64,000 bases of DNA from Candidatus Woesearchaeota archaeon (GTDB lineage Archaea > Nanobdellota > Nanobdellia > CAYMVK01 > CAYYFB01), in assembly GCA_964471255.1 (NCBI GenBank), contig CAYYFB010000002.1, positions 42,283 through 106,282 of the forward strand. Reading direction: 5' to 3'. Below the pieces are notes generated by a model. The model did not search any database. It worked only from the letters and a program-made list of their open reading frames with translations, and was not told the origin of the DNA. The translations under genes were made by a program, and so were the position numbers. Below are positions 438-54,408 of this stretch, in pieces; the stretch's first letter is position 1, and each line of letters begins with the position of its first letter.

Positions 438-1572
438 AGAATTTAGAGAAAAAGTTATAGAAATAAAAGATCACTTAAGAAATTATTCTGAAGCCTTGGT
501 TGTTTTCCATGATGATGCAGATGGGTTATGTTCTGGAGCAATAATTAAGGAAACACTGGAGCGGGCTGGAATAAATGCAAAAATGGTTTGTTTAGAAAAA
601 ACATATCCATTCGCGCTCCAGAAAATCCATTCAGGGGAGGGAGGATTAATATTTTATTGTGACATTGGATCCGCTCATGCGGATTGGATTGGAAATTTCA
701 ACCGCTCCAGAAATCTAGTAATTATTCTAGATCATCATGATCCCACAGCTACTAAGGATCCAAAGGTTATAGATCTTAACCTAGAATATTGGGGATATAA
801 AGGAGAATCGGATTTTTCTGGAGCGGTAATTTGTTATCTTTTTTCAAAAATAATTTCGCCGGCTAATAAGGACCTATCTTATTTAGGGGTAATAGGGGCT
901 AGTGAATTGCCTGGAGGGTTTGTTGGATTTAATAAAGAAGTTTTAAAGGAAGCTAAAGAATTAGGTCTAATTACCCAGGATCTTTACATAAAAAAATTAG
1001 GAATGGATGTTAAGGAAGTTTTTTCTGTTTTGCAGGTTTTGGGGGCTGTGGGATATTACCAAGGCGGTCCAGAAATAGGAATAAAATTGATTCTGGAGGG
1101 GCCAAAAGAGTCTTATCTAAATTTTGCAAAAGAACTTAGGGAAAAAAGGAAAAAGCTTAATAAAATCTTACTAGGCAAATTAAGAGCTGGAGAGTTGAAA
1201 CAGGGAAAAATTATTCAATGGTTTGACGCTAAAGATTTATACAAAGGAATGGGTTCAAAAGTAATTGGCCAATTTTGCTCGTTTCTCTCTTACCAAAGAC
1301 TTGTCAATCCAAGGAAATATATACTAGGATTCATGAATCTTGAGGGATATTTGCCAGGGATTGGTAAGTTTGAAGAAAAGTATTCTAAGTTCTCTGTAAG
1401 AGTCCCAGTGTTTTTGAGGAAGCTTATTGAAGCTGGTAAAGCAAAAGATTGTGTCGAATTAGGAAAAGCAAGCTATAAATATGGTGGATTTATAGATGGT
1501 CACAAATTTGCAGCCAGCGGGATAGTAAAGAGAGAATTAATAGAAGCTTTTACAGAAGAAGTAGATAAATAG
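427..1572 (+). CDS. DHH-family phosphoesterase (RecJ-like)
   Basis: It has an N-terminal HDDADGLCSG motif, an ILDHHD (DHH) motif and a C-terminal GGFIDGHKFAASG (DHHA1-like) motif. Confidence 0.65.
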   Translation: MLPKEFREKVIEIKDHLRNYSEALVVFHDDADGLCSGAIIKETLERAGINAKMVCLEKTYPFALQKIHSGEGGLIFYCDIGSAHADWIGNFNRSRNLVIILDHHDPTATKDPKVIDLNLEYWGYKGESDFSGAVICYLFSKIISPANKDLSYLGVIGASELPGGFVGFNKEVLKEAKELGLITQDLYIKKLGMDVKEVFSVLQVLGAVGYYQGGPEIGIKLILEGPKESYLNFAKELREKRKKLNKILLGKLRAGELKQGKIIQWFDAKDLYKGMGSKVIGQFCSFLSYQRLVNPRKYILGFMNLEGYLPGIGKFEEKYSKFSVRVPVFLRKLIEAGKAKDCVELGKASYKYGGFIDGHKFAASGIVKRELIEAFTEEVDK

Positions 1573-1586
1573 CTCTGGAGCGGCCC

Positions 1587-2195
1587 TTAATCTTCAATTT
1601 CTATTATCTCCCCCTTCGGTCCAGGATTTATGACAAGGGTTTTACCCACTTTTACTTTTTTTCCAAAGGTTTCATGCATATGGCCACAAATTAAAATATC
1701 TGGTTGATATTTCTTAATAAATTCTACAAGTTTTTTATTTGCTTCAAATCCTAGAGTTAACTCTGGAATTTCTGGAGGCTCATGCACCAGCACTATTTTT
1801 ACTTTTTTATCCTTTATCTTCTCAAAATTTTCCCTCAGGCTTTCAAATATCTCCTCTTCACTTAAGAAATTAGGGCCAACCTTTGTAGCTCCTCCTACTC
1901 CTATTATACCAACATTTCCTAATATAAAATAGGATTTATGCACATTGTAAATCATTGGCCTATAAAGATTAACTAAAAAATCTATGGTCGGATTTGTCTC
2001 CTCATTACCTGGTATTAATATTATTCTCTTTCCACTTTTCTTAAGTTCTCCAACTATCCCTTCTAATTTAGTTTCTAAATGAGTTAAGTCTCCAGCTATA
2101 AGAATTGCATCAACATTTTCTTCCTTTGCTTTCTTAACAAGCTCCCTTATCCTCCCTAATTCACCATGCAAATCTGAGGCAACTAGAATTTTCAT
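1587..2195 (-). CDS. Calcineurin-like metallophosphoesterase (YfcE/MJ0936-like)
   Basis: Motifs are MKILVASDLHG, IAGDL, GNEE and GHMH. I moved the start to the ATG at 2195, because the tracked N-terminal 42 aa is a low-complexity overlap with the divergent gene. Confidence 0.65.
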   Translation of the reverse strand: MKILVASDLHGELGRIRELVKKAKEENVDAILIAGDLTHLETKLEGIVGELKKSGKRIILIPGNEETNPTIDFLVNLYRPMIYNVHKSYFILGNVGIIGVGGATKVGPNFLSEEEIFESLRENFEKIKDKKVKIVLVHEPPEIPELTLGFEANKKLVEFIKKYQPDILICGHMHETFGKKVKVGKTLVINPGPKGEIIEIED

Positions 2196-2205
2196 AATTA
2201 GGATT

Positions 2206-2700
2206 ATGGGAGGAAAGTTGATAGTCATTACCGGCTCTCCAGGAGTTGGAAAAACAACACTTGCAAAGGAACTGGAAAAACTTGGAGTTGGAAAAATGCT
2301 TCCTGAAGAAATAGTATCCAAATGTGTTGTTTCTTATGACCCTTACCTTGAAACGAAAGTAATAGACGAAAGAAAACTTGCTTCAGTTCTAAAAGAATTT
2401 CTTGACAAAAATGATGGAATTTATATATTTGCATCACATATTTCCCATTTTTCGCCAAAAGAATGCGTTCTATTATATATTCTGCTTACATGCGATCCAA
2501 ATGAATTAAAGAGAAGACTTGAAAAAAGAAAATTTGATTCTTTTAAAATAATGATGAATATTCTTAGCGAAGAATATGGAATAATTAAAAAAGAGCTTGA
2601 AGAAATGGGAATTCATTATCTGGAATTTAAAACTGATAAAAAATCTATAAAGGAAATTGCTGAAATTATTATGAAAAAAATTAGAACATTTTCTCCCTAA
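2206..2700 (+). CDS. Fap7/AK6-like P-loop nucleoside kinase/NTPase
   Basis: It has the P-loop ITGSPGVGKTTLAKEL and, at about 164 aa, the size and layout of archaeal adenylate-kinase-like Fap7. Confidence 0.55.
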   Translation: MGGKLIVITGSPGVGKTTLAKELEKLGVGKMLPEEIVSKCVVSYDPYLETKVIDERKLASVLKEFLDKNDGIYIFASHISHFSPKECVLLYILLTCDPNELKRRLEKRKFDSFKIMMNILSEEYGIIKKELEEMGIHYLEFKTDKKSIKEIAEIIMKKIRTFSP

Positions 2701-3208: not shown

Positions 3209-5308
3209 ATGGGAGTACTACCAGATACTTCTGCAGTAATAGAGGGGGTTATATCTGATTTACTAAGAAAGGGAAAAATAAGGGGGCCAATAGTTATCCA
3301 TAGGGCTGTTGTTTCTGAGCTAAATCATCAGGCCAATCAAGGAAAAATAACTGGGATGCTTGGACTAGAGGAAATAAAAGAAATAAGGAAAATAGGAAAA
3401 ACACTAGGGGTAAAAGTAGAGATAGTTGGAGATTATCCTACTAAAAGAGAAATAGAACTTGCGAAAATGGGGGAGATAGATTTGCTCCTAATTGAATATG
3501 CTTTTAATAATAATCTTACTCTTATAACTTCCGATACAGTTCAAGCTAAAACAGCTGAGGCTATGGGGGTTAGGGTCTTCTATATAGAGCCAAAAGTAAT
3601 AAGAACGCTCGAATTTGAAAAGTATTTTGATGAGGAAACAATGAGTGTGCATCTAAAAGAAAATACTTACCCAACTGCTAAAAAAGGAACTCCAAAGAAG
3701 TGGAGGTTTGTTAAAATTTCCGATGAGATTATAAGTAAAGAGTATTTAGAAAAACTGTCCTATGATATAATAGAATTCGCAAAACAGGACCCCCTTTCTT
3801 TCGTAGAGATTGATAGGAAAACAACCACCATAGTTCAGCTTAGAAGCTATCGTATAATTATATGTAGACCCCCCTTCTCTAGCGGTTGGGAAATAACTAT
3901 TGTTAGACCAATCAAAAAACTTTCATTGCAGGATTATAATCTTCCTAGAAAACTGTTGGAAAGATTGGAGAAGAAAGCAGAAGGAATATTAATAGCTGGG
4001 CCTCCTGGAGCGGGAAAATGTGTTACTGGGGATACCCTCATACTTACTGAGCTAGGAAAAATACCAGCAGCAGATTTATATCAGATGGTAAAAAATGGAA
4101 AATCAATTAGAGTTATATCTGTAAGGATGAATAGAATAGAAAAACAAAAAATAAAAAAAGCCTTTTCAAGAAAAGCCAAGATTATAATAAAAATAACGAC
4201 ATCAGGGGGAAGGACTATCAAAGTAACTCCTGCTCATCCTTTATTACTAGGAAAATCTTCGGGAGTCGGTTGGTATAGAGCATCTCAAGCAAATGAAGGA
4301 GATATGATTGCTACATTCGGAGAGGATGAGTTTATTCCTGCCCACCCTTTGATAGCAAATCTTGTTGGAAATACCGGTGGGAAGTTTATTGAAAAATCAT
4401 TTCTTAGATCTAAGCTCGAAGAGATGCCTTTAAAAGATCTTGTAAAAAATAAGGACAAACTGCTTCTTTTAAATAGTCTCATTAGATGGGAGACTATAAA
4501 GAAAATAGAAAGATATGAAACTGAGGAGTTTGTTTACGATTTTGAGTGTGAAAGAGTTCATAATTTCATAGCCAACGGGGTAATTATTCATAACTCTACA
4601 TTTGCCCAAGCCTTGGCAGAATTTTATGCATCAAAAGGAAAAATAGTCAAAACTGTAGAATCCCCAAGAGATTTAAGTCTTCCAGCAGAAATAACACAGT
4701 ATTCAAAAGATTATGGAGATTCAAAAGAGATTCATGATATTTTACTCCTCTCCAGGCCTGACTATACAATATTTGATGAAATGAGAGATGATGATGATTT
4801 TAAGTTGTATATTGACATGAGACTTGCGGGTGTAGGAATGGTAGGCGTGATACATGCTTCCTCCCCTATAGATGCTATTCAAAGATTTATAAGAAGAGCT
4901 GAATTAGGACAAATCCCAAGTATAATAGATACCACAATTTTCATAGAAGGAGGGGAAGTAAGTAAAGTTTATTCTCTCAATTTAACTGTAAAATTGCCAA
5001 CCGGCCTGAAAGATAGGGAACTAACACGACCAGTAATAGAGGTCAGAAACTTTCTTACCAATGAGCTAGAATACGAAATCTACAAATTTGGAGAAGAAAC
5101 TGTTGTTGTTCCAGTACGCAGGTTAAAATCAGAGGCACTATGGAGATTAATGGAAGAATTTGGAATAAAGGAATGGGAAGAAAGAAATGGAAGGATAATT
5201 ATAAAAGTAAATAGAGATGAACTAAAAAGAGTAAGGAAGAGTTTAAGACGCCTCTCCAGAATTCTTAAGAAAAGATTTAAAAGAGAGATAATAGTGGAGG
5301 TAGTATAA
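3209..5308 (+). CDS. PIN-domain + P-loop ATPase + C-terminal KH-like protein (PilT-family, COG1855-type), interrupted by an intein
   Basis: The N-terminus is PIN-like. The Walker A GPPGAGK is followed directly by an intein, and the extein resumes with STFAQ, restoring GPPGAGKST. A Walker B-like IFDEMRD follows. Confidence 0.75.
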   Translation: MGVLPDTSAVIEGVISDLLRKGKIRGPIVIHRAVVSELNHQANQGKITGMLGLEEIKEIRKIGKTLGVKVEIVGDYPTKREIELAKMGEIDLLLIEYAFNNNLTLITSDTVQAKTAEAMGVRVFYIEPKVIRTLEFEKYFDEETMSVHLKENTYPTAKKGTPKKWRFVKISDEIISKEYLEKLSYDIIEFAKQDPLSFVEIDRKTTTIVQLRSYRIIICRPPFSSGWEITIVRPIKKLSLQDYNLPRKLLERLEKKAEGILIAGPPGAGKCVTGDTLILTELGKIPAADLYQMVKNGKSIRVISVRMNRIEKQKIKKAFSRKAKIIIKITTSGGRTIKVTPAHPLLLGKSSGVGWYRASQANEGDMIATFGEDEFIPAHPLIANLVGNTGGKFIEKSFLRSKLEEMPLKDLVKNKDKLLLLNSLIRWETIKKIERYETEEFVYDFECERVHNFIANGVIIHNSTFAQALAEFYASKGKIVKTVESPRDLSLPAEITQYSKDYGDSKEIHDILLLSRPDYTIFDEMRDDDDFKLYIDMRLAGVGMVGVIHASSPIDAIQRFIRRAELGQIPSIIDTTIFIEGGEVSKVYSLNLTVKLPTGLKDRELTRPVIEVRNFLTNELEYEIYKFGEETVVVPVRRLKSEALWRLMEEFGIKEWEERNGRIIIKVNRDELKRVRKSLRRLSRILKKRFKREIIVEVV
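4019..4594 (+). mobile_element. Mini-intein (192 aa) inserted in the P-loop of the PIN/KH ATPase
   Basis: Block A is CVTGDTLI, block B is TPAHPLL (TxxH), block F is VYDFECERVHNFIANG, and block G is VIIHN followed by +1 Ser. It is in frame with both exteins. Confidence 0.8.
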
Positions 5309-5895
5309 TGGAAGAAGAACTCTTAGTCCCCTTGGAAAAATATTTGCTAAGTGGAATCCATATAGGCACCAAAATCAAAACAAAATTTACTGAGCCATTC
5401 ATATTTAGAATAAGACATGACGGTCTCACTATTTTAAATATTGAGGAAATTGATAGGAGATTAAGGATAGCTGCCAATTTTTTATCCAGGTTCGAGGCTT
5501 CTGAGATTGCAGTGGTAGGAAGGAGAATGAGTGCAAGAAAGCCAATTCTAATGTTCTGTAAAGCTACTGGAGCGGTTCCTTTTGTGGATAGATACCTTCC
5601 TGGCACTTTTACTAATCCTGAATATGAATGGTACTTTAATCCATCTGTAGTTCTCATCAATGATCCTTGGGTAGATAGAGTAGCTCTTAATGATGCTTTT
5701 AAAGCTGGGATCCCAATAGTGGCCCTTGTAGCTACTAGTAATGTTCTTTGTAAGGTAGATTTAGCTATTCCATGTAATAATAGAGGGAGGAGGTCTCTTG
5801 CTCTTATATACTGGATTTTAGCTCGGGAGTATCTAAAGAGAAGAGGAATCACAGAGGAATTCACTATTCCCGTAGAAGAATTTATTACAAAATAA
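5308..5895 (+). CDS. rps2: 30S ribosomal protein uS2
   Basis: The sequence LLSGIHIGTKIKTKF...RHDGLTILNIEEIDRRLRIAANFL is typical of archaeal S2. Confidence 0.85.
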   Translation: MEEELLVPLEKYLLSGIHIGTKIKTKFTEPFIFRIRHDGLTILNIEEIDRRLRIAANFLSRFEASEIAVVGRRMSARKPILMFCKATGAVPFVDRYLPGTFTNPEYEWYFNPSVVLINDPWVDRVALNDAFKAGIPIVALVATSNVLCKVDLAIPCNNRGRRSLALIYWILAREYLKRRGITEEFTIPVEEFITK

Positions 5896-6413
5896 TGAAA
5901 ATAATATTTTTCGAGCCTTTTCCCTCAACCTATCAAGAGATAATACTAGCTTTTCTCAAAAAAGAATTTTCAAAGAAGTTTGGTATTAATTTAAAGGAAA
6001 TAATATATGAAACTGCCCCAGAAGGGAGTTGGAATAAAGAGAGGAAACAATATAGTTCTGAAAAGATTTTGGACCATCTAATAAAAAAGCATAGGTTTTC
6101 ATTTTTTTCCTTTATAGATTCAGACCTTTACGTAGAGGGACTAAACTTTGTGTTTGGAGTTGCTATCCCTTTTAGAGGATTTATACTTTCTACTTTTAGA
6201 CTTAAGGGGGAACTATTCTTAAGCAGATTAAAGAAAGAAATTTATCATGAGTTTGGTCATGTTTGCGGTCTTTCCCATTGTAAACCTCCATGCGTGATGT
6301 CTTTTAGTAATTCTATAAAAGAAGTTGATAGAAAATCAGAATTCTATTGTGAAAAATGTTTGAGAAAATTATTAAAAAATATAGCTTTAATGAAAAAGTA
6401 TTCTATTTTATGA
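5895..6413 (+). CDS. amzA: Archaemetzincin (zinc metalloprotease)
   Basis: It carries the signature HEFGHVCGLSHCKPPCVMSF plus a distal CEKC, matching HExxHxxGxxxCxxxxCxM...CxxC. Confidence 0.8.
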   Translation: MKIIFFEPFPSTYQEIILAFLKKEFSKKFGINLKEIIYETAPEGSWNKERKQYSSEKILDHLIKKHRFSFFSFIDSDLYVEGLNFVFGVAIPFRGFILSTFRLKGELFLSRLKKEIYHEFGHVCGLSHCKPPCVMSFSNSIKEVDRKSEFYCEKCLRKLLKNIALMKKYSIL

Positions 6414-7258
6414 AAAGAAAACCTGTAGTTGCTGGGAGTTTTTACCCATCTAATCCGGAGAGGCTAAAAGAGATGATAGAATATTGTTTTTCTCATAAAT
6501 TAGGCCCAAAGGAATTTAGAACGAGATCGGAGGTTGTCGGAGGAATTGCTCCTCATGCTGGCTATGTTTACTCAGGGCCCTGTGCTGCCTGGTTTTATTC
6601 CACACTTAAAGAGAATAAGACCTTCATAATAGTCGGACCAAAGCATACAGGATATGGTACTCCTATTTCTATACTAACAAGAGGCGAATGGGAAACCCCT
6701 CTTGGAACAGCGGAGATAGATAGCGAAATTGCATCATATCTAAGAGATACCTGCCCCCTCCTTAAAGAAGATTGGGATTCTCACACTTATGAGCATTCTA
6801 TAGAAGTGCACCTCCCATTTCTTCAATATTTATTTGAAGAAGTGAAGTTTATTCCTATTGTAATAGACTCTTTCTTTTTTGACCCAAAATATACCAAAAA
6901 AATAGGCTCCAGCATTAAGAAAGCTAAAGAGGAATTCGAAGACATTATAGTTATAGCATCTTCAGATATGACCCACTATGGGCCTTGGTACGGATATTAT
7001 CCTTTCGGATTAGGAAAAAATGCTTTAGAAAAAGTGAAAGAACTTGATCTTAAACTTCTTTCTTTTGCAGAGAAGTGTGATATAGATGGGTTCTGGAGGT
7101 TCTATGTAGAAAACCATATGAGTGTTTGCGGAGCCGGACCAATAATTGTATTATTAGCATATAGTGAAAAGGAAGGAGAAGTATTGAAATATTACACATC
7201 AGCAGAAGTAACTGGAGATTATGAGAACTTTGTTGGATATGCTTCTCTAGTTTTTTAA
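6410..7258 (+). CDS. MEMO1-family protein (AmmeMemoRadiSam system protein B-like)
   Basis: It begins KPVVAGSFYPSNPERL and contains GIAPHAGYVYSG. The start was moved to the ATG at 6410, which overlaps the amzA stop (ATGA). Confidence 0.7.
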   Translation: MKRKPVVAGSFYPSNPERLKEMIEYCFSHKLGPKEFRTRSEVVGGIAPHAGYVYSGPCAAWFYSTLKENKTFIIVGPKHTGYGTPISILTRGEWETPLGTAEIDSEIASYLRDTCPLLKEDWDSHTYEHSIEVHLPFLQYLFEEVKFIPIVIDSFFFDPKYTKKIGSSIKKAKEEFEDIIVIASSDMTHYGPWYGYYPFGLGKNALEKVKELDLKLLSFAEKCDIDGFWRFYVENHMSVCGAGPIIVLLAYSEKEGEVLKYYTSAEVTGDYENFVGYASLVF

Positions 7259-8211
7259 GATTCTAATTTTTCTATTTCTTCTTCCAATCCTAACGCTTCT
7301 ACTATCTCTTTGTATCTATTTCTCACAGTTACTTCTGTTACATTTGCAGCATTCGCTACTTCTCTCTGAGTTCTTTTTTCATTGCAATAAAGACTAGCTA
7401 TATATACAGCAGCTGCTGCAACTCCTATAGGGCCTTTTCCAAATATTGCCCCAGCTTCCTCTGCTTTATCTATTATTTCTTTAGCTTTATCAATAACCTT
7501 CTCAGATAATCCAAGACTATTCGCTATTCTCTCAATGAAATCCCTAGGATCTACAGGTATCATTTTGATCCCAAGTTCCCTTAGTATAAATTTGTAGACC
7601 TTCCCTATTTCTTTCTTGGTAACCTTTATACTTTTACTTAAGTCCTCAATAGCTTTTGCCATCTCATCCAGAGTTTTTGGTATTCTATACATCCTACAAG
7701 CTGCATAAAGTACAGCAGCTGCTGCACTATGGATGCTCCTACCTCTTATTAATTTCCTTTTTGCGGCCATCTTGTAAAGTTTAACTGCCTCATCTCTCAC
7801 ATATTCGGGCAATTCTAGTATTTCAGCTATCCTTCCTATTTCCATTAATGCATACTTAATATTTCTCTCCCAAGCTGAATCCAACCTCTGTTCCCAACTG
7901 CTTATCTTCATAAACTCCTCCCTGATTCTTCTAGGAAGTTTTGTTATGTCAGACTTGTCTATCTTTGATTCTGCCTGCCTTGCATGGATAGGAGTTGTTA
8001 TTGAATCTCCACCCCTTCTTTTGAGGAAATCTTCCCCTTCAAATTCCCTCCACTCTCTAGTATGAAAGGCCACATCGGGCACTTCAAATGTTAAACCACA
8101 CTCCAGACAATAGGCTTCTCCTCTTGAATAATCAAAGATTATTTTAACTGATCCGCAATCAGGACACCTTAATTTTATTCTTTCCTTTGCCTTTTCTTTT
8201 TTTCTTCCCAT
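7255..8211 (-). CDS. tfb: Transcription initiation factor IIB (TFB)
   Basis: It has the N-terminal zinc ribbon CPDCGS...CLECG and two cyclin-like repeats. Confidence 0.9.
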   Translation of the reverse strand: MGRKKEKAKERIKLRCPDCGSVKIIFDYSRGEAYCLECGLTFEVPDVAFHTREWREFEGEDFLKRRGGDSITTPIHARQAESKIDKSDITKLPRRIREEFMKISSWEQRLDSAWERNIKYALMEIGRIAEILELPEYVRDEAVKLYKMAAKRKLIRGRSIHSAAAAVLYAACRMYRIPKTLDEMAKAIEDLSKSIKVTKKEIGKVYKFILRELGIKMIPVDPRDFIERIANSLGLSEKVIDKAKEIIDKAEEAGAIFGKGPIGVAAAAVYIASLYCNEKRTQREVANAANVTEVTVRNRYKEIVEALGLEEEIEKLES

Positions 8212-8212
8212 G

Positions 8213-8593
8213 TTATTTCACAAGTATCGCATTTACAACTCCATCTTGGCCGGGTCTCGATGTTACTTTCACTTTTCCTATCTCTGTTTCTAGGATGGCC
8301 CCTTTTGTTATTATACCCAACCTAGGAAAGTGTTTATTTGCAGGATTCTCAAGGACTCTCAAGATTTTTACTTTTTTACACCTCTTTTCCTCAGGGATGT
8401 AAACATTAGCATATTCACACGCGAGAAGCCTAACTTTCTTATTTCCTCCCATACATCTGATAATCTTGTTTTTTTGTTCTCCAATTTTTGTTAAGGCGGG
8501 CTCTCTTCCCATCTCTCTTTTCCTTTTATCTCTAAGTTTCCTATACTTGCCTCCAGAAATTTTCCTTCTTGATCTAAACTGCCATATAGCCAT
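8213..8593 (-). CDS. rps8e: 30S ribosomal protein eS8
   Basis: It begins [32 protein letters not shown]. Confidence 0.85.
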
Positions 8594-8667
8594 ACTTATC
8601 TATTTAACTATTTCGACGTGCTCCCTTTTTAAGCTTTACTATATTAAAAAACAAAAAAGGCCAAAGA

Positions 8668-8934
8668 TTAAAAATAAAGCCAGCGCTTCTTAACAGCCCT
8701 ATCAAAGACTATCCAGTTATCATACCATTCTTTATTTCTCTCTTTGAGCTCTTTTAGTACCATTTCTCTTAACTCATTTGTATGCACTTCTTCTTTGTCT
8801 TTGATTCTTTCTTCAATTTTCCTAGCTATCTCTCTGGCAACATCTGGAGGGGCTCCAGCTTTTATCATTGAAACTACTAGTTTTTCTGGTATGAATTCCT
8901 CAATACGGCCATCTCTTTTCCTAACCTTTACCAT
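8668..8934 (-). CDS. ATP-cone domain protein
   Basis: The opening VKVRKRDGRIEEFIPEKLVVSMIKAG resembles an ATP-cone opening. Confidence 0.5.
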   Translation of the reverse strand: MVKVRKRDGRIEEFIPEKLVVSMIKAGAPPDVAREIARKIEERIKDKEEVHTNELREMVLKELKERNKEWYDNWIVFDRAVKKRWLYF

Positions 8935-9670
8935 GGGTTTTTTTCTTAAATTTCTCTAAAAGTCTTTTTGCATCTTCTCGCATGTAGATATTATTAAAAA
9001 GAATATAAGAGTCTCTTTTATATTCTTTGAATTTCTTATAGATGAGCTCTATTTCTTTATCAGAATACTTATATCTATAATTTATTCTTCCTTTTTCTAT
9101 CTTTCCGTGTAACCTTACGTAAAGCGGATTGGTAAGTACATAGGGATCTTCTCTTAGTGGATCAAATACTTGAATTAGCTCTAGTTTCTTACATATTTTC
9201 CCAACCGTCCTGTGATCCCAACCTCTTAACTCTAGAGCTAGAAAAAGGCCTTCCCTCTCAATATTATTGAAAAAATTTTCTATTCTTCCTATATTTTCCT
9301 CATTTTCTTTGAAAGAAGGAGGAAGTTGAAAAACAAAAACTTTTGAACCAAGAATTGAACCTATTTTAACCATTTTGCTCCAGAAATCCTTTGTCAAGTT
9401 ATTTAAAGAGAGAAATCCAACTCTGTCTTTTACTTTTTGAAGATCTACGCTTTTGCATCTTCTCCAGGTAGGGGAAGAAGGAGGATGGGTAAGACCCTGA
9501 AACACTTTTAGAGTGAATTCAAATTCTGGAGGGGCTTTCTCTCTCCATTTTTTAGCCCTCTTTTCCGTAATAAGATTATAAAATGTTTCTTGTACTTCAA
9601 CTACCTCAAACTCTTTAAAATACTTATCCATTGCCATAGGAAAACCACAACAACCTATTTTTATCCTCAT
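8921..9670 (-). CDS. DUF72 (YecE-like) family protein
   Basis: It begins MRIKIGCCGFPMAMDKYFKEFEVVEVQETFY, with DUF72-like length and layout. Confidence 0.65.
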   Translation of the reverse strand: MRIKIGCCGFPMAMDKYFKEFEVVEVQETFYNLITEKRAKKWREKAPPEFEFTLKVFQGLTHPPSSPTWRRCKSVDLQKVKDRVGFLSLNNLTKDFWSKMVKIGSILGSKVFVFQLPPSFKENEENIGRIENFFNNIEREGLFLALELRGWDHRTVGKICKKLELIQVFDPLREDPYVLTNPLYVRLHGKIEKGRINYRYKYSDKEIELIYKKFKEYKRDSYILFNNIYMREDAKRLLEKFKKKTHGKG

Positions 9671-9679
9671 ATTCTACTA

Positions 9680-9742
9680 ACATAATGTGATGAGTTTAGC
9701 CTTGTCTGAAGCCTGATGAGTGATGGGCTTACTGAGCAAATA
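9680..9742 (+). ncRNA. C/D-box sRNA (2'-O-methylation guide)
   Basis: The C box GTGATGA (9687-9693) is followed by a 12-nt spacer and the D' box CTGA (9706-9709). The C' box TGATGA (9714-9719) is followed by a 12-nt spacer and the D box CTGA (9732-9735). The element is intergenic. Confidence 0.7.
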
Positions 9743-9767
9743 AATTATAACCTCCTCTGTCTAAGAT

Positions 9768-10865
9768 ATGACAATTTACTTAGTGAGATATAGTGAAATC
9801 TATTTAAAATCAGTAAGAACAAGAAAAAGACTCTTAAATTTGCTAATAACAGACATTCTCAGAAGATGCAAAGAACGAATTCAAAAAATTCAGCTAGATA
9901 AGGGAAGGATAATAATAGAAGGAAAGGAAATTTCAGAGATCCTTAAAAAAGTACCAGGAATTTTCTCTTTCAGTGAGGCAATAAGGGTAAAAAATTGGAA
10001 AGAAGTTCCTGAGGCTGTTTTGAAGTATCTGAAAGGGAAGAAAACCTTTGCTGTCAGAGTAAAGAAAAGTTTAAAGATGGAAAAAAGTAGCTTGGACATT
10101 GCTGCTGAGATTGGAGAGAAAATTTTAGAACTGGCTCCTGAGCTGCGTGTTAACTTAGATAATCCAGACATAGAAATAAATGTAGAAATAAGAAAGAGTG
10201 GAACTTACGTTTTTTTCGAGAAAATACCTGGCTTAGGAGGTCTTCCTTTAGAAAGTGAGGGAAGAGTCGTTTCATTGGTTTCTGGTGGGACAGATTCTTC
10301 TGTTGCAAGTGTTTTAGTGCTAAAAAGAGGATGTTTGCCTATTCTTCTCCACGGAGAAATGAAAAAATTCTGGAGCGGGGATGCTTATGAAAGATTCTAT
10401 AAGTTTGTAGAATATTTTTCTGAATTCTCTCCAGATTCTCCCGTTTACTCCTTTAATCTAGAAGAACTCCACGAAAAGTTCAGGCTTAATAATAGTCTAC
10501 GCTGTTTCTTCTGTAAAGCATGTATGTATAAAGCTGGAGAGATCCTTTGCAAAAAAACAGGGGCAAAGGCGATAGTAACAGGAGAATCTCTAGGACAAGT
10601 TGCTACCCAAACGCTCGAAGCATTGTATTTCCTCTCCAGAACAGTTTCTATTCCTGTTTTCAGGCCTGTTCTTTGCTGGAGTAAGCTTGAGATAGAATCT
10701 TTAGCAAAAAATCTTAACTTATATCGAATTACCGGAAAGAATGTGGGAAAATGTTCACTTCTACCGACCTTCCCTCGCACGACTCTTTCCAAAAATGAAT
10801 TTATTAGACTAAAAAAAGAAATAAAGAGAATTGAGAGAAATATTAGATTTAAAAAGATTTACTAA
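9768..10865 (+). CDS. thiI: tRNA 4-thiouridine synthase ThiI-like (THUMP + PP-loop)
   Basis: The PP-loop [13 protein letters not shown] is preceded by a THUMP-like N-terminal half. Confidence 0.75.
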
Positions 10866-11026: not shown

Positions 11027-11062
11027 ACTAGCTAAGTTTATTATTCAAAAATTAATGCTCTA

Positions 11063-13195: not shown

Positions 13196-13212
13196 GACTT
13201 CTCTTCAGCTAG

Positions 13213-19571: not shown

Positions 19572-19610
19572 TCTATAGAAATTATGGTAAGTTCTAGATA
19601 CCTAAAGAAA

Positions 19611-44511: not shown

Positions 44512-45427
44512 AGATCTAAAGAGTATACTCAGATGTCCTAACTGTAAAAGCAAGTTAGAGTTTTTTGAGGGAAGAATAAAATGTAAAAAGTGCTCCTTTT
44601 TAGGGAAAATAAGGGACGGGATTTTTATTTTTGAGGAAAGTTCTGGAGCGCTTTGCAAATACTATGATCTATACTCTGCCTTCTATGATCTTAACTATCA
44701 CAATCCAACCATAGCCTATGCAAGAGTTAGAGAACAGGAAATTTTAAAAACGTGTTCTGGAGTGGGGGCAGATTTGGGATGCGGTACTGGAGCGCAGACC
44801 ATATTCCTAGCTAGTTCTGGAGCGCGGGTAATAAGCATTGATATTTCATTTAGAATGCTTAAAAGATTAAGGCAAAAGATCTGGAATCTTAATTTCCAAG
44901 AAAAGGTTTTGCCTCTCCAGACAAATATAGAAAACCTCCCGCTCCAGAATGACTCACTAGATTTTGTTATTTCCATGTTTGGAGCACTAAACCATGTTAA
45001 TCTGGAGCGGGCTTTAAAGGAAGTTTCCAGAGTCTTAAAGAAGGGGGGTTTCTTTATTTTTAGCATTCAGACAAAATATGTTTATCATCTCCCCGAGCTG
45101 CTCCAGTTATTGAAAAAAGCAAGGAAGTATTTCTTTAGTAAAGAAGTAATTTTCCCCATAATAAGAGATAAAAAAGGAAGGAGAGTAGGAGTAAAAACTT
45201 TTCTTTATTCATGGAAAGAAATAAAAAGATCGCTGCTCCAGAATGGCTTCGAAATATTAAGAAGGGAAAGCTTATTTCTCTTCCTTAAGCCAAAATTTAA
45301 ATATTTTCCTTTCCTCAAGCTTAGGCCTTTAGAAAAATTAAAAGCAAGACTGGAGCGCGTGGTTGGAAATATTCCTCCTTTTAATTGTTTTGGAGTTTAC
45401 TTAATTTTCCTAGCTAGGAAAAAATAA
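44501..45427 (+). CDS. Zinc-ribbon (Trm112-like) + class I SAM-dependent methyltransferase
   Basis: It contains CPNCKS...CKKC followed by ADLGCGTGAQTIFLA. The gene carries about 9 copies or variants of the CTGGAGCG motif. Confidence 0.65.
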   Translation: MSFEDLKSILRCPNCKSKLEFFEGRIKCKKCSFLGKIRDGIFIFEESSGALCKYYDLYSAFYDLNYHNPTIAYARVREQEILKTCSGVGADLGCGTGAQTIFLASSGARVISIDISFRMLKRLRQKIWNLNFQEKVLPLQTNIENLPLQNDSLDFVISMFGALNHVNLERALKEVSRVLKKGGFFIFSIQTKYVYHLPELLQLLKKARKYFFSKEVIFPIIRDKKGRRVGVKTFLYSWKEIKRSLLQNGFEILRRESLFLFLKPKFKYFPFLKLRPLEKLKARLERVVGNIPPFNCFGVYLIFLARKK

Positions 45428-48734: not shown

Positions 48735-49397
48735 TTATTTTAGAGCGTCAGTAAACTCCTTCATTTTCTCATATGGATCTTTTGCTTTAACAACTCCAGA
48801 AGCAATTAAAAACCCTTTGGCTCCTAGCTCTATTCCTTTTTTAATATCCTCTCCTGTCTTAATTCCAGCTCCTATTAATAATGGAACTCTATCCTTACAT
48901 ATTTCTACAGCTTTTTTTACAATCTCTGGCTTTGCTTTGGATACTGAAATATCCCCTCCTATTAATTCTGGGGGCTCATAGGCGATAAAATCAGGATTAA
49001 ATTCCAATATCTTTGATATTAGTTCTAAATCTGGAGCGCAAACTACTGTAATTAAGTCCCATTTTCTTGCAGCATCAATAGTTTTCTTTATCTGATCAAG
49101 CTCAAGCCTATGTTCTGAATGATTAATTAATGTCCCATAAGCTCCAGCATCCCTTATGGCCTTTGGATGAATCCATCCGGTATGTGCCCCAAATTCTATT
49201 GGATCTATATGTTGGGCTAGTACTCTTAATTTAGTAGCTTTTGCTATTTGATAAATATCTGTTGGTTGTACTGCCACCCATATTTCACATCCCAATTCAT
49301 CCTTTGCCCGCTCCAGAATTTTTGCTAATTCTACAGCTCTTTTTCCTATCCCTTTCTCATAAGCTTTAAAATTAATAATAAAGACTACATCTCTCAT
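48735..49397 (-). CDS. tpiA: Triosephosphate isomerase (archaeal short type)
   Basis: It contains FIINFKAYE, LINHSEHR and AYEPPELIG. Confidence 0.85.
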   Translation of the reverse strand: MRDVVFIINFKAYEKGIGKRAVELAKILERAKDELGCEIWVAVQPTDIYQIAKATKLRVLAQHIDPIEFGAHTGWIHPKAIRDAGAYGTLINHSEHRLELDQIKKTIDAARKWDLITVVCAPDLELISKILEFNPDFIAYEPPELIGGDISVSKAKPEIVKKAVEICKDRVPLLIGAGIKTGEDIKKGIELGAKGFLIASGVVKAKDPYEKMKEFTDALK

Positions 49398-51198: not shown

Positions 51199-51684
51199 TT
51201 AGAGTTTATAGCCAATATTTCTTAAAAATTTCTTTCTTTCTTCTATATCTTCCTCCGTTTCAATTCCTTTTGTCTTATACCCATCTATAACTCCCAAAAC
51301 ACCTCTTCCTTGCTCTGTTTCTGCAACTATTACCTCAACAGGATTTGCTGTGGCACAATATAGCGTCACTACTTCGCTTACTTTTTTTATCTTATCAATA
51401 ACATTTATAGGATATGCATTTTTTAAGACTATGATAAAAAAATGGCCAGCCGAAACTTTCATAGCATTTTTCTTTGCTATTTCTATACATTCCTCATCAT
51501 TTCCTGCCCATCTTACTAAACATTTTCCTGAGCTTTCACAGAAAGCAATTCCAAATTTTATTTCTGGAAATGCTTCTTTTAGAGCCTCATAGAGGTCCTC
51601 TACAGTCTTAATGAAATGGCTTTGTCCAAGTATAATATTCCAATTTTCAGGCTTTTCTATCCTAACCGTTTCCAGCTTTATCAT
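51199..51684 (-). CDS. PF04008-like (adenosine-specific kinase family) protein
   Basis: The sequence [19 protein letters not shown]...GIAFCESSG...VIDGYK has family-like layout and length. Confidence 0.55.
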
Positions 51685-52595
51685 AAGTTGTGATACTCAA
51701 GAATTTCTATATCATCAACCCTTCCATCAGAATCCTTATCCACCCCTAAAACTACTGAATAGAATTCCTTCCCCTCCTTATAGATATCAAACAACTTTCC
51801 ATGAGTGAGAGAAAGGATGGCAGCTTTAGTTCCTTCTCCTTTATAACCTGAAAAAATAAGGAGCCATTTTTCACTGTTCCATGGACTCCTAATTTTACAA
51901 ACTAAACCATAAGCATCATCTCTATACTCTTTTCCTGTAAAAGATGAATAAAAAAGCTCAACACCATTCTCAACTCTATATTCTATCTTCAGATATTTTC
52001 TTGATTTATCAATAATATGATTTCCAATAGGACTTCCCACAAGGATTAGATTTTCTTTCTCAAGGAGATCTCTGATAATTACTTCAGCATCTAATATCGC
52101 AGAAATTGGTCTTTTTGTAAATCTAACAAACCTTCCTAGGAAAAGGCATAGCTCTGCTGCCAAAAACCCATATTTTCCTACAGCCCTTGAAGGCCCATGA
52201 GGAAATGGTGACTCTATTGCTATAAGACAATTTAAATACCCCTCTTTAGAAACAAAAGGGTAGAAGAACTCTAATGCTTTAACGGAAATTTCTCCCCGAA
52301 TGATTTTCTTCCATTTTGGATTTATTACTATTGAAATGGCATCCGATTTTAATCTATAAAAATTCCCCGTTTTTTCTACTATCCCTTTTTCTCTTAAATA
52401 GGAAAGATGATAGAGAACTGTCTGTTTTGTTTTATTTATTTTTTCTGATAGATAGGAAAGATCCGAACTTCCCCTGCTGAGTTCTTTCAGAAGTTTAAAT
52501 TTCACTCCAGAAAGGTCTAATCCTTCTTGAAAAATTAAGGTGGAAAGCATCTCTTCTCCTCTTATTATTATACCTTTATCTAACACTTTTTCCAT
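51681..52595 (-). CDS. Winged-helix (ArsR-like) DNA-binding protein with an uncharacterised C-terminal domain
   Basis: It has the w[33 protein letters not shown]. Confidence 0.45.
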
Positions 52596-52650
52596 ATTTT
52601 TCGAACATCTGAAAAAATATTAAAATTTGTTTATCAATTTTTCAACAAAA

Positions 52651-52659
52651 ATTTAAATA
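52651..52659 (+). promoter_or_regulatory. TATA-like box upstream of glmS
   Basis: ATTTAAATA is centred about 26 nt upstream of the glmS ATG, consistent with a leaderless archaeal transcript. Confidence 0.35.
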
Positions 52660-52680
52660 GAGCTAATCCTAGGCTAGGGC

Positions 52681-54408
52681 ATGTGTGGTATCCTAGGAAT
52701 TGTCTCTAAGGAACCCATTAAGATCAAAGATGCTCTTAATAGGCTCAAGAGGTTAGAGTATAGAGGATACGATTCTGCGGGAATAGCTTCGGCTTCAGGC
52801 TTCTTTTTAAAGAAAAAAGGAGATATAGATTCACTTCTGAAAGTTGTTCAAGGAATAAATTCAAAAGATAAAGTAATAATAGCACATACCCGATGGGCTA
52901 CTCATGGAGAAGTATCTGATATAAACTCTCACCCCCATTTAGATTGCTCTGGAGAAATAATGATAGTACACAATGGAATAATAGAGAACTATAAGGAACT
53001 AAGAAAGCATTTAGAGAAGAGAGGACATATTTTCAGATCAGAGACAGATAGTGAGGTTATAGCTCATCTGATAGAGGATGAAGTAAGAAAGGGAAAAGAT
53101 TTAAAAGATGCTGCGCTCCAGTTATTTAGAAAGCTAAAAGGAACTTATGCCATTCTAATCCTAAAGAAAGGGGAAAACAGGGTAATAGCTCTGAGAAAAG
53201 ACTCCCCATTAGTTATTGGGTTAAGCAACCCCACTATATTTATATCCTCGGATGTTCATACCTTCTTAGATCTAACCCAGAAAGTCATTTTGCTCTCGGA
53301 TTATGAGCTTGCAGAAATAACAGAAAACTCAATAAGAATTTTCAATAAGAAGGGAAATTTGATTAAAAAGAAAATTAAAAACTTAACGCTTGTAGAGCTA
53401 AGCGCTAAGAAAAGAGAATTTGAACATTTTATGTTAAAGGAAATATTTGAACAACCTTTGGCAGCAAAAATTCTTATTGAGTCTTTAGAAGGAGAGCAAG
53501 GAGAAAGGATAGACAAACTCTGTGAGCTTATAGAAAAATCTAAAAATATAGTGTTTTTAGGGGCCGGATCTTCCTATCATGCTTCCCTTATAGGAGCTTA
53601 TCTATTAAGAAAACTCGGATTCCTAGCTGAAGCAATCCTGGCCTCTGAATATCAGTTAGGTGTTTACGATAAAGAAACTCTTCTTATTCCTGTCTCACAA
53701 TCTGGAGAAACGATGGATGTGTTGTTAGCTGTAAAAAACTTGAGAAAGAAAGTTTTTCATGTTTTTTCTGTCCTTAATATTCCATATTCAAGCCTGGAGA
53801 GGCTTTCAGACTCTTTTGTATATATCAATGCTGGACTGGAGAAATGTGTTGCAGCAACCAAGACTTATACAAATCAAGTTCTACTTTTCCTTCTTTTGGC
53901 AAAAAAATTGGGGCTTAGGATTCCAATAAGAAAAGCTCCCAACGCGCTTCAAGAAATTATAGAAAAAAATGAAGAAAGATCAATAAAAATTGCTAAAGAA
54001 ATAAAAAATGAAGAGAGCATATACATCATTGGAAGGGGGATAAACCTTTTTGCTGGGATGGAAATCGCATTGAAACTTAAGGAAATAAGCTATATTCATG
54101 CTGAAGTACTTGCTGGAGGGGAGTTAAAACATGGGACTTTAGCGTTAATTGAACCAGGAACAAAAGTTTTATCTCTTAATCCAAAATGGGATAAAAGAAT
54201 TGAAAGTAATATGAAAGAAATAGAAAGTAGGGGAGGGAAAATTTATTCAATAAATAAAAATGGAGATTTTGTAGTTCCTGAAGACAAGTTCCTCTATCCA
54301 GTTTACGCTGTGATTTGCGGTCAGCTTCTGACCTATTATACTGCAAAGGAAAGGGGTCTTCCTATCGACAAGCCAAGAAACCTTGCAAAGACAATAACAG
54401 TATTCTGA
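52681..54408 (+). CDS. glmS: Glutamine--fructose-6-phosphate aminotransferase
   Basis: It has the N-terminal MCGILGI and two SIS domains. No intein is present. Confidence 0.9.
   Translation: MCGILGIVSKEPIKIKDALNRLKRLEYRGYDSAGIASASGFFLKKKGDIDSLLKVVQGINSKDKVIIAHTRWATHGEVSDINSHPHLDCSGEIMIVHNGIIENYKELRKHLEKRGHIFRSETDSEVIAHLIEDEVRKGKDLKDAALQLFRKLKGTYAILILKKGENRVIALRKDSPLVIGLSNPTIFISSDVHTFLDLTQKVILLSDYELAEITENSIRIFNKKGNLIKKKIKNLTLVELSAKKREFEHFMLKEIFEQPLAAKILIESLEGEQGERIDKLCELIEKSKNIVFLGAGSSYHASLIGAYLLRKLGFLAEAILASEYQLGVYDKETLLIPVSQSGETMDVLLAVKNLRKKVFHVFSVLNIPYSSLERLSDSFVYINAGLEKCVAATKTYTNQVLLFLLLAKKLGLRIPIRKAPNALQEIIEKNEERSIKIAKEIKNEESIYIIGRGINLFAGMEIALKLKEISYIHAEVLAGGELKHGTLALIEPGTKVLSLNPKWDKRIESNMKEIESRGGKIYSINKNGDFVVPEDKFLYPVYAVICGQLLTYYTAKERGLPIDKPRNLAKTITVF

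Follow-up and report, generated by a model that had tools for sequence, protein, structure and literature searches.

Several systems are known that resemble the pattern described here. At the level of DNA uptake, the DUS has an essential core with a distance-graded influence (PMC3630211), and coding-region signatures of USS and DUS have been reported (PMC2817400). The cyanobacterial HIP1 octamer, in turn, is enriched 15- to 300-fold and lies both inside and between ORFs without a peptide or RNA role (PMC5861425). A persistent BREX system of the archaeal genus Haloterrigena has CTGGAG (m6A) as its listed motif (PMC10609329, Table 3), and in some bacteria uptake is known to be biased by DNA methylation (PMC6471742). 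Sequence-specific DNA uptake, on the other hand, was not found described for any archaeon in the literature searched. We know of no described archaeal equivalent of the hyper-abundant word reported below.

Abundance and placement of the word

The window, i.e. the whole stretch of 64,000 nt that was analysed, is AT-rich (35% G+C) and contains 36 exact copies of CTGGAGCG, 23 on the + strand and 13 on the - strand, all at the coordinates and on the strands given in an earlier note on this DNA. The note's rough expectation of well below 1 agrees with 100 dinucleotide-preserving shuffles (mean 0.34, maximum 3). Among the 8-mers of the window CTGGAGCG ranks first, at 64-fold enrichment under an order-2 Markov model, and TTCTGGAGCGG is found 11 times against 0.03 expected. 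The note had also proposed a codon-preserving shuffle, and its claim survives this check, as synonymous-codon shuffling yields 4.1-4.4 copies (maximum 9), about 3 of which are the copies in non-coding DNA that the shuffle left fixed. The note's list of one-mismatch relatives is right in its positions, except that 38281 has to be corrected to 38280 and that several CTGGAGTG/CACTCCAG copies were missing.

The word occupies about 1.7% of the window sequence, its enrichment carries on through 5 kb beyond the window, and independent Logan contigs (run SRR7051321) match the window sequence at 100%. Copies of CTGGAGCG are equally dense in coding (0.57/kb) and non-coding DNA (0.52/kb), and are clumped (variance/mean 2.6 in 2-kb bins, p=1e-4). 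They are listed here, together with the remaining copies of the hexamer CTGGAG, with gene coordinates and strands in brackets:

556-563, +: DHH phosphoesterase gene (427-1572 +), sense, frame 0, L-E-R; LQN in a 53%-identical homologue
614-621, -: DHH gene, antisense, gene strand GCG CTC CAG (A-L-Q); homologue VIE
703-710, -: DHH gene, antisense, gene strand CGC TCC AGA (R-S-R); homologue QSK
818-825, +: DHH gene, sense, frame 1, TCT GGA GCG (S-G-A); homologue SGA as TCA GGA GCA
1575-1582, +: non-coding, 3 nt past the DHH stop codon, convergent genes either side
4005-4012, +: PIN-intein-ATPase gene (3209-5308 +), CCT GGA GCG within the Walker-A motif GPPGAGK
5567-5574, +: ribosomal protein S2 gene, ACT GGA GCG (T-G-A)
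10370-10377, +: ThiI/THUMP gene, frame 2, TTC TGG AGC GGG (F-W-S-G)
14135-14142, -: PolD large-subunit gene, antisense (P-A-P-E); PSHE in a 63% relative
18309-18316, +: DUF460 gene, L-E-R; relative VRE
24218-24225, +: GH130 gene (23898-24812 -), antisense (P-A-P-V)
25691-25698, -: LamG-domain gene (24864-25949 -), sense, D-W-S-G
26117-26124, +: EamA transporter gene, T-G-A
26813-26820, -: IMPDH gene (26444-27877 -), sense GCT GGA GCG, invariant A-G-A, purely synonymous, conservation percentile 99
27388-27395, +: IMPDH gene, antisense (T-A-P-E), variable CBS region, percentile 46
27436-27443, +: IMPDH gene, antisense (A-A-P-E), variable CBS region, percentile 10
27845-27852, -: IMPDH gene, sense, S-G-A, unconserved N-terminus, percentile 0
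27941-27948, -: non-coding, about 64 nt upstream of the IMPDH start codon
28490-28497, -: dCTP deaminase gene (28143-28676 +), antisense (T-A-P-G)
28659-28666, +: dCTP deaminase gene, sense, L-E-R
34101-34108, +: SufBD gene, L-E-R
36138-36145, +: non-coding, convergent genes either side (35605-35970 + and 36238-37059 -)
36295-36302, +: hypothetical gene (36238-37059 -), antisense (P-L-Q)
38096-38103, +: Nre gene (37107-38294 -), antisense (I-A-P-E)
42687-42694, -: class II aminoacyl-tRNA synthetase gene (42593-43984 -), sense, L-E-R
42944-42951, -: same synthetase gene, sense, T-G-A; inverted pair with 42974, 22-nt gap
42974-42981, +: same synthetase gene, antisense (P-L-Q)
44643-44650, +: orphan class I SAM-methyltransferase gene (44501-45427 +), copy 1 of 6, S-G-A
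44787-44794, +: SAM-methyltransferase gene, copy 2, T-G-A
44817-44824, +: SAM-methyltransferase gene, copy 3, S-G-A
44940-44947, -: SAM-methyltransferase gene, copy 4, antisense (P-L-Q)
45002-45009, +: SAM-methyltransferase gene, copy 5, L-E-R
45350-45357, +: SAM-methyltransferase gene, copy 6, L-E-R
49031-49038, +: triosephosphate isomerase gene (48735-49397 -), antisense (C-A-P-D)
49309-49316, -: triosephosphate isomerase gene, sense, L-E-R
53114-53121, -: GlmS gene (52681-54408 +), antisense (A-L-Q), last copy of the window
1-64000, strand not specified: 111 further CTGGAG without a following CG (147 in total), spread across the whole window

Twenty of these copies are sense (frames 8/10/2), 13 are antisense (1/5/7) and 3 are non-coding, so the word is indeed read in different frames (all six) and in spacers, the copies or near-copies at 1575, 19703, 25982, 27941, 36097 and 36138 all being non-coding as the note had it. 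The 23:13 ratio of strands fits the 60:40 coding-strand share (p=0.74), in line with the absence of a strong orientation bias claimed before; the hexamer is split 85:62, compatible sites are occupied to 42% in sense and 34% in antisense, and neighbouring copies only hundreds of bases apart switch orientation (556+, 614-, 703-, 818+). Neither strand nor frame nor coding status matters to the word, which is read as duplex DNA.

Motif structure and marks on genes

While the 8-mer was previously taken as the unit, the motif is more accurately described as a compact, non-palindromic footprint of about 12 bp, TT-CTGGAG-CGG, in which the hexamer CTGGAG (also the BpmI/GsuI site) is the invariant core, the flanks are graded and CTGGAGCG is the peak. 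The 147 hexamer copies (z=17) are partly codon-driven, as the codon shuffle alone expects about 47, and some 70 of them agree with the motif at three or more of its five flank positions (12 expected). Specifically, one-substitution variants at positions 1-6 of CTGGAGCG total 4 copies, not above background, whereas those at positions 7-8 total 75 against about 13 expected. The footprint spans -2 to +9, with no distal signal seen outside it around the window copies. The flanks of the copies compared are unrelated, and the word is therefore not a repeat element.

The avoidance of the codons concerned, as claimed before, is confirmed (CTG is 6% of Leu, CGG 3% of Arg and GAG 33% of Glu codons), and GCG makes up 9% of Ala codons in the window. 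Nevertheless, 33 of the 86 peptide sites able to spell the word synonymously do so, against 1.1 expected, and a halo of one-mismatch sites accompanies them (33/21/9/15 sites with 0/1/2/3 mismatches vs 1.1/11/30/31 expected). At LER sites, 8 of 19 use the rare codons CTG-GAG-CGN (0.03 expected), and tripeptides encoded by the word are themselves 1.8-fold enriched (84 vs 46.9 +/- 6.9). Copies mostly fall on poorly conserved residues, as seen in IMPDH (percentiles above) and in the homologue comparisons for DHH, PolD and DUF460, where 5 of 6 sites differ from the homologue. The densest gene is the orphan SAM-methyltransferase, for which a homology search gave no homologue above 31% identity, and ribosomal, transcription and replication genes are sparsely occupied: in the TFB/ribosomal-protein and RFC/MCM/TBP blocks 1 of 24 synonymous-compatible sites is occupied, vs 19 of 25 elsewhere. 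The word thus enters genes in two ways, through rare synonymous codons and through amino-acid replacement where the protein tolerates it.

The note's view that the DNA word itself is the target of selection or of a generative process is strongly supported by the six frames, the spacers, the unrelated flanks, the codon-shuffle excess, the synonymous recruitment and the tripeptide excess, as against action on a peptide, RNA or mobile element. The window PolD is closest to that of Nanoarchaeota/Woesearchaeota, which makes the source archaeon DPANN-like. The word is no commoner than expected in 59 other archaeal loci and in relatives whose PolD is 63%, 52% and 51% identical; in the latter, the nearest sampled (51-63%), neither the word nor a substitute 'dialect' was found. 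Judging from these sequences, the word is lineage-specific.

Uptake, binding and modification as possible explanations

The best explanation is, tentatively and somewhat short of an even chance, a DNA-level molecular drive of the uptake-sequence (USS/DUS) type. More specifically, (i) a protein that takes part in DNA import or DNA exchange and recognises specific sequence would prefer word-bearing fragments, (ii) alleles gaining the word would pass into conspecifics by transfer and recombination more frequently than alleles losing it and (iii) accumulation would be checked by selection on proteins and on the codon use of highly expressed genes. The likeness to DUS/USS proposed in the note gains support from the synonymous recruitment, the tripeptide excess, the weakly conserved positions, the one-mismatch halo, the occupancy and the absence from relatives. 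The hard core with soft flanks is like the essential core and graded influence of DUS (PMC3630211), the coding-region signatures match those of USS/DUS (PMC2817400), and the occupancy falls inside the 1-2.5% reported for DUS genomes. However, the archaeal copies show neither the concentration in intergenic inverted pairs known from DUS nor the phased AT tracts of USS; genome-maintenance genes of Neisseria are if anything DUS-enriched, whereas the synonymous-compatible sites of the TFB/ribosomal-protein and RFC/MCM/TBP blocks are nearly empty here. No gene with a role in DNA import, no pilus or receptor gene and neither DprA nor ComEC is present in the window. We infer an uptake function for the word from sequence, and sequence signatures of this kind do not tell biased transfer apart from direct selection in favour of DNA binding.

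Such direct selection is possible but less likely, in the form of a binding-site array for an abundant sequence-specific chromosomal protein acting in nucleoid organisation, condensation or segregation, along the lines proposed for HIP1. The enrichment of the word falls in the HIP1 range and, like HIP1, it is found within and between ORFs without a peptide or RNA role (PMC5861425); protein footprints typically consist of a hard core and graded flanks, the clumped, regionally varying occupancy would suit a domain-like organisation, and the window contains genes for two HTH proteins without assigned specificity (23007-23915 and 51681-52595). But the word, being non-palindromic, is without the defining form of HIP1, which together with its variants is widespread in its phylum, while the nearest relatives here have neither word nor substitute. 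For HIP1 the evidence for selection is conservation between genomes and periodicity, and the cost to proteins seen in the tripeptides is easier to account for by drive than by a requirement for over one site per kb.

A doubtful alternative has CTGGAG recognised by an adenine methyltransferase of Type IIG, Type III or BREX-like kind, and enriched because its methylated copies mark 'self' for defence, methyl-directed repair or discrimination of incoming DNA; if such discrimination depends on methylation, this explanation would merge with the uptake model. The invariant part has a length of exactly six bases, is asymmetric and carries A at position 5, the lack of enriched variants at positions 1-6 fits the all-or-none specificity of R-M enzymes, and CTGGAG is both a documented archaeal BREX m6A motif (PMC10609329) and among predicted haloarchaeal recognition sites. 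Indeed, a strictly invariant hexamer fits a reader of the R-M type no less than an uptake receptor. Still, hosts of R-M systems normally avoid the recognition word or show it at neutral frequency, to which the enrichment runs counter, and strong preferences at five flank positions are unexpected for a six-base reader. The window holds no DNA methyltransferase or restriction gene, its two methyltransferases being small-molecule class I types. Methylation-linked short-patch repair, also suggested before, is disfavoured, since a ratchet of deamination and short-patch repair predicts a depleted precursor and none is seen among the 18 one-substitution neighbours (O/E 0.5-1.06 except CTCGAG; 0.77-1.06 for transitions); moreover, m6A creates no T:G mismatch.

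A polar signal of the Chi or KOPS type, one strand of which is read by a helicase-nuclease or translocase, is very improbable. The word is a GC-rich 7-8-mer at about 0.5/kb in an AT-rich genome, AGCGG (the Bacillus subtilis Chi, resembling the Chi GAAGCGG of Staphylococcus aureus) forms the end of 24 among the 36 copies, and the window encodes XPF/ERCC4, DUF460, Nre and DHH/RecJ-like recombination/repair proteins. The note's Chi-like alternative nevertheless loses ground to the absence of polarity in both 8-mer and hexamer and to the short-range alternation of orientations, co-orientation below about 60% being already the picture in the 64 kb, although a weak skew relative to replication may be present. 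RecBCD/AddAB are not known in archaea, and no gene for them lies in the window. Scarcely credible, finally, is that the enrichment has no DNA-level cause and results from codon or dipeptide usage, a single recurrent peptide, multiplied mobile or repeat elements, or faulty assembly: although xCT-GGA-Gxx and xCT-CCA-Gxx use favoured codons, as reflected in the hexamers expected from the codon shuffle, this reading is refuted by the unrelated flanks, the six frames and spacers, the identical independent contigs, the rare-codon LER sites and an 8-mer count 8-fold over the codon-preserving shuffle (more after removal of the fixed copies).

If the uptake-type drive is the true explanation, the organism would acquire conspecific DNA preferentially over host or foreign DNA. 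As with bacterial DNA-uptake sequences, codon choice and even protein sequences have been reshaped by the word.

Abundance, boundaries and anatomy of the word

A search of both strands recovers all 36 copies of the 8-mer CTGGAGCG that the earlier note had reported, at the same coordinates, with 23 on the plus strand and 13 on the minus strand. The word is real, strong and sharply defined. Specifically, 100 dinucleotide-preserving shuffles of the window contain 0.34 copies on average and never more than three, and under an order-2 Markov model the word ranks first among all 8-mers, being 64-fold over-represented. The extended form TTCTGGAGCGG is found 11 times against 0.03 expected, and the G+C content of the window lies at 33-37% along its entire length. 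Synonymous-codon shuffling, which keeps proteins and codon usage and had been put forward in the earlier note as a test able to refute the enrichment, yields 4.1-4.4 copies and a maximum of nine against the 36 observed; about three of those 4.1-4.4 are simply the non-coding copies that such a shuffle leaves in place. The accompanying list of one-mismatch relatives was correct overall, but the start given as 38281 should read 38280 and some copies had been omitted.

Contigs from an independent assembly (Logan, run SRR7051321) agree with the window at 100% identity over the shared stretch, and the word is therefore not peculiar to one assembly. The three Logan contigs of this run extend the window by only 5 kb, on its left side, where two further 8-mers, both in SecY, and 15 hexamers are present. 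Thus the enrichment, whose absence from the rest of the genome had been named as grounds for rejecting it, persists in the 5 kb beyond the window.

The invariant unit is the hexamer CTGGAG, with 147 copies against 38 under the order-2 model and 47 in the codon shuffle (z=17). Variants of the 8-mer at any of positions 1-6 occur 0-3 times each, which is background, and variants at position 7 or 8 occur 5-24 times each, amounting to 75 copies against about 13 expected. Taken over the 147 hexamers, information is confined to positions -2 to +9 (T, T, CTGGAG, C, G, G, followed by G or C), and outside them neither a significant flank signal nor phased AT tracts were found. The five flank positions are strongly non-random (p 1e-4 to 1e-28): TT and CGG are matched at 44-52% against a background of 18-32%, as a genomic proxy for graded positions, and three or more of the five are matched in 70 hexamers where 12 are expected. 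Good sites lie at about 1.1 per kb and make up about 1.7% of the sequence.

When the 36 copies are aligned with 30 bases on each side, similarity ends about two bases upstream and about two downstream, and the spacings between copies range from 30 to 5909 bp. Because they share no sequence outside about 12 bp, the copies do not derive from a mobile or repeat element, and MITE, REP and CRISPR elements are ruled out. The 18 words that differ from CTGGAG by one substitution show neither enrichment nor the depletion expected of a single precursor (observed/expected 0.5-1.06, except for CTCGAG); for lack of such a depletion, Vsr-type or short-patch conversion is rejected. CTCGAG, the XhoI-type palindrome, is the sole clearly avoided neighbour (one copy against 6.8 expected in the codon shuffle, observed/expected 0.15), and its depletion may reflect restriction-site avoidance.

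Action on DNA and the mark left on genes

The gene map places 70 ORFs over 91% of the window, and on this map the word is read in multiple frames, as had been claimed: 20 copies are sense (frames 8/10/2), 13 antisense (1/5/7) and three non-coding. Its density is nearly the same in coding (0.57/kb) and non-coding (0.52/kb) DNA. More specifically, among the 86 peptide sites able to spell the word by synonymous codon choice alone (hereafter compatible sites), 33 are spelled with it where codon usage predicts 1.1; sites with 0, 1, 2 and 3 mismatches number 33, 21, 9 and 15 against 1.1, 11, 30 and 31 expected. Eight of the 19 Leu-Glu-Arg sites, for example, are written CTG-GAG-CGN, with CTG accounting for 6% of Leu codons and CGN for about 9% of Arg codons, and the occupancy of compatible sites is independent of how rare the required codons are. 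Occupancy is 42% in the sense and 34% in the antisense direction, and this equality rules out an RNA-level, Shine-Dalgarno-like or peptide cause. The earlier note had also seen no strong orientation bias, and the plus-strand excess (23:13) is indeed what a 60:40 split of coding between the strands predicts (p=0.74), with opposite orientations interleaved at short range. The window shows a drive at the level of DNA, together with its footprint, and it is the cause of this drive that we infer.

The proteins have not been left untouched. The encoded tripeptides (LER, [STPA]GA, WSG, [PAST]LQ, AP[EDGVA] and RSR) number 84, against 46.9 +/- 6.9 and a maximum of 69 in within-protein shuffles. In an alignment of IMPDH with 25 homologues, conservation at its four copies ranks in percentiles 0, 10, 46 and 99; the copy in percentile 99 covers an invariant Ala-Gly-Ala, where the spelling GCT-GGA-GCG is a matter of codon choice only. 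Of the six tripeptides that carry the motif in DHH, PolD and DUF460, five are unlike the nearest homologue, and the sixth (SGA) is conserved, with the homologue spelling it TCA-GGA-GCA. The word has thus entered genes both by synonymous recruitment and by amino-acid replacement where the protein is tolerant.

Two genes may be mentioned in their own right. A class I SAM-methyltransferase gene (44501-45427) carries six 8-mers and ten CTGGAG in 927 bp, and among 5.8 billion proteins its product has no relative at more than 31% identity; no other gene of the window is as dense in the motif or as orphan-like. A PIN-domain ATPase (3209-5308) is split by an intein (Pfam Intein_splicing, residues 286-462), and its Walker-A motif GPPGAGK, immediately upstream of the intein, contains a copy of the word.

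Along the window the 8-mers cluster (variance/mean of 2.6 for 2-kb bins, p=1e-4), unlike the remaining hexamers (1.25). Compatible sites are occupied at about 19 of 25 across 24.2-28.7 kb and 42.6-45.4 kb, and at one of 24 across the blocks 6-13 kb (6000-13200) and 53.2-64 kb combined, a difference of Fisher 2e-7 between regions that were picked post hoc, after the data had been seen. The first of the poor blocks holds TFB, RpoD-like genes and ribosomal proteins, and the second L15e, RFC, MCM and TBP. The difference could stem from selection on codons where expression is high, from recombination that varies by region, or from domain structure. Density is not explained by masked GC3, which served as a proxy for codon bias or base composition (Spearman -0.16, not significant). 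Separately, the block 19314-22982 consists of five ORFs without a Pfam match and has no 8-mer and only three CTGGAG in about 3.7 kb, against 2.3/kb window-wide. In Haemophilus, genes without uptake sequences have been described as recent acquisitions, and by analogy this block may be recently acquired DNA.

Source organism, relatives and other loci

The genes of the window include the PolD large subunit, MCM, RFC, TBP, TFB, ribosomal proteins, aminoacyl-tRNA synthetases, IMPDH and similar housekeeping functions, which, together with an Rfam tRNA match, mark the window as archaeal. The tRNA match itself (57114-57216, 103 nt) was missed by ARAGORN and is probably an intron-containing archaeal tRNA, and the minus-strand ORF 57023-57265 that overlaps it is probably spurious. 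PolD is identical to a protein on a 184-kb contig present in NCBI, JGI, ENA and Logan. Its next best match is 63% identical, and the named matches (46-52%) belong to Nanoarchaeota or Woesearchaeota, which points to a DPANN-like organism without a close sequenced relative. Best identities in protein searches for relatives were 63% for PolD, 60% for IMPDH and 31% for the methyltransferase; a scan of genome collections for closer relatives yielded at most 47% identity, and the one metagenome scan a single 3.5-kb contig with a 53% identical DHH gene. The 64-kb window contains no gene for restriction-modification, a DNA methyltransferase, a pilus, competence or a mobile element, and neither the window nor its 5-kb extension holds competence or DNA-import machinery or a gene for a sequence-specific receptor.

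The word shows enrichment in none of 59 archaeal PolD loci. The nearest relatives by PolD identity are locus L060 (63%), L185 and L186 (52% each) and L187 (51%); in all four both CTGGAG and CTGGAGCG are as frequent as expected, and no other word in them is comparably extreme. In the closest of them (L060, GCA_054036315.1, 16.8 kb), TATGATCA occurs nine times against 0.8 expected and AGCTGCAG four times against 0.1, a mild enrichment far below that of the window's word. On the above 3.5-kb contig with the DHH relative (Ga0190308_1004378), the single CTGGAG is a full CTGGAGCGG (L061:986-994), which has a chance of about 0.04-0.06 on a contig too short to interpret.

A blind scan for the most extreme 8-mer in 50 loci of at least 10 kb gave p=1e-14 to 1e-22 for the thirds of the window and 5e-9 or weaker for nearly all others. 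The idea that such a word is a general property of archaeal loci is rejected, as among the other 50 loci (10 kb or longer) only one is comparably extreme. This locus, an AT-rich DPANN contig labelled Ca. Nanohalarchaeota (JAFCCC010000001.1, our L057), contains four copies of a perfect 14-bp palindrome, TCCGAGCGCTCGGA, within 25 kb, its 8-mer core being expected 0.06 times. It is a different kind of iterated word from that of the window.

Copies of the palindrome TCCGAGCGCTCGGA in locus L057 (flanks unrelated)
9626-9639, first copy
16588-16601, second copy
18258-18271, third copy
18942-18955, fourth copy

Viral contigs were also scanned for closely spaced pairs of the word, and only chance matches, GC-rich contigs or tandem repeats were obtained.

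Known hyper-abundant words and the cause of the drive

Hyper-abundant genomic words are rare, and the known classes (USS/DUS, Chi, KOPS and HIP1) are all bacterial. An uptake-type or exchange-type drive is tentatively ranked first among the processes that might have produced the present word, because its DNA-level behaviour, its anatomy and its protein signatures match those reported for USS and DUS. The DUS of Neisseriaceae are words of 10-12 bp whose receptor is the minor pilin ComP. They have an essential short core with graded flanks, occupy 1-2.5% of the genome and fall into lineage-specific dialects (Frye and colleagues, PMC3630211). The word of the window is likewise short, non-palindromic, lineage-specific and hyper-abundant on both strands and in several frames within genes, with a similar occupancy (about 1.7%, against about 1-2.5% in DUS genomes) and an essential core accompanied by graded positions. 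It differs from GCCGTCTGAA and its dialects in having an unrelated sequence and in belonging to a different domain of life.

USS and DUS roughly double the encoded tripeptides and lie preferentially in genes and residues of low conservation, and their one-mismatch variants are over-represented (Findlay and Redfield, PMC2817400); their accumulation has been explained as a molecular drive that arises from biased uptake and is opposed by selection on proteins (PMC2817400). Here too, as with the USS of Pasteurellaceae, the copies are mostly coding, the tripeptides are about doubled, the copies sit in weakly conserved genes and residues, and one-mismatch forms are in excess; unlike USS, with its 9-bp core AAGTGCGGT and phased AT-rich flanks, the word has an unrelated core and its signal is confined to -2 to +9. 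Since occupancy does not depend on codon rarity, the drive appears to be stronger relative to codon selection than has been inferred for Haemophilus.

The signatures of USS and DUS that the window displays are abundance on both strands, the imprint on coding regions and, by genomic proxy, a core with graded flanks. Several observations speak against an uptake origin. Inverted pairs, frequent at terminators in the case of DUS, are absent from intergenic DNA here: each of the three non-coding copies stands alone, and the one inverted pair at close range lies within a gene. Genes for replication carry few copies of the word, contrary to Neisseria, where genome-maintenance genes are rich in DUS. 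Neither sharing nor dialects were found in the sampled relatives, which at 63%, 52% and 51% PolD identity are distant and make for a weak test. Finally, a literature search for archaeal uptake sequences or hyper-abundant words found no archaeal case, and none of sequence-specific DNA uptake. In its fullest form the proposal is a doubtful one. It would make the word the first archaeal uptake-type self-recognition sequence, read by a receptor with a strict CTGGAG core that possibly senses methylation, so that conspecific DNA is imported and recombined over host or foreign DNA, and the resulting drive would have rewritten about 1.7% of the genome, proteins included.

It is rather unlikely, though arguable by analogy, that the copies form an array of protein-binding sites under direct selection, as has been proposed for HIP1; the two HTH proteins encoded in the window (23007-23915 and 51681-52595) are candidate binders. 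This cyanobacterial palindrome (GCGATCGC) is over-represented 15- to 300-fold, a degree similar to that seen here, inside and between ORFs and without a peptide or RNA role, and decades of study have yet to settle its function (PMC5861425). Both are GC-rich octamers enriched within and between ORFs for which peptide and RNA roles are excluded. However, HIP1 and its variants are palindromic, whereas the reverse complement of CTGGAGCG is CGCTCCAG and no palindrome results; the forms of HIP1 with one mismatch show broad conservation, whereas the present word has no enrichment of core mismatches; and HIP1 is phylum-wide, whereas the word of the window is confined to one sampled lineage. Selection on HIP1 is supported by sites shared from genome to genome and by periodic spacing over long distances (periods of 10-90 kb).

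It is unlikely that CTGGAG is a modification word belonging to a methyltransferase of a restriction-modification or BREX system. The hexamer, which is also the BpmI/GsuI site, is asymmetric, six bases long and has an A at position 5, as in BREX, Type IIG and Type III words, and its all-or-none character would suit such an enzyme. The same hexamer, with m6A, is the motif of a persistent archaeal BREX system in Haloterrigena (PMC10609329 Table 3). Against this stand the five informative flank positions, as the specificity of such enzymes would be expected to lie within the word only, and the absence of a depleted precursor; moreover, no DNA-methyltransferase gene is present in the 64-kb window. 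Words of this type are also not known to be enriched in host genomes. A combination with the uptake model is possible, the methylated word then being what is recognised when DNA is imported.

A polar signal comparable to Chi or KOPS is highly improbable. AGCGG, which forms part of the word, coincides with the Chi of low-GC Firmicutes, and Chi and KOPS/AIMS are over-represented GC-rich 5-8-mers; these are strongly skewed in strand relative to replication, unlike the word of the window, whose 23:13 ratio equals the coding-strand share, and the interleaved orientations disfavour the Chi-like alternative that had been raised earlier. Codon usage, a peptide, a repeat or an artefact as the cause has next to no probability left and is regarded as refuted.

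The word represents a known kind of element, the hyper-abundant genomic word under DNA-level drive, in a new domain of life and with an unrelated sequence. Each of the known classes has revealed, or still hides, a major DNA-handling system. As the word is short, strict and defined at base resolution, its cause is directly testable, and it could serve as a binning marker for the lineage and, if uptake is true, as a handle for genetic manipulation. An archaeal equivalent in DPANN, which are poorly understood and mostly uncultured, would indicate either sequence-specific DNA exchange or a new chromosome-organising or epigenetic system. Sequence-specific exchange, if true, would bear on how tiny host-dependent archaea maintain their genomes and distinguish their own DNA from that of the host.
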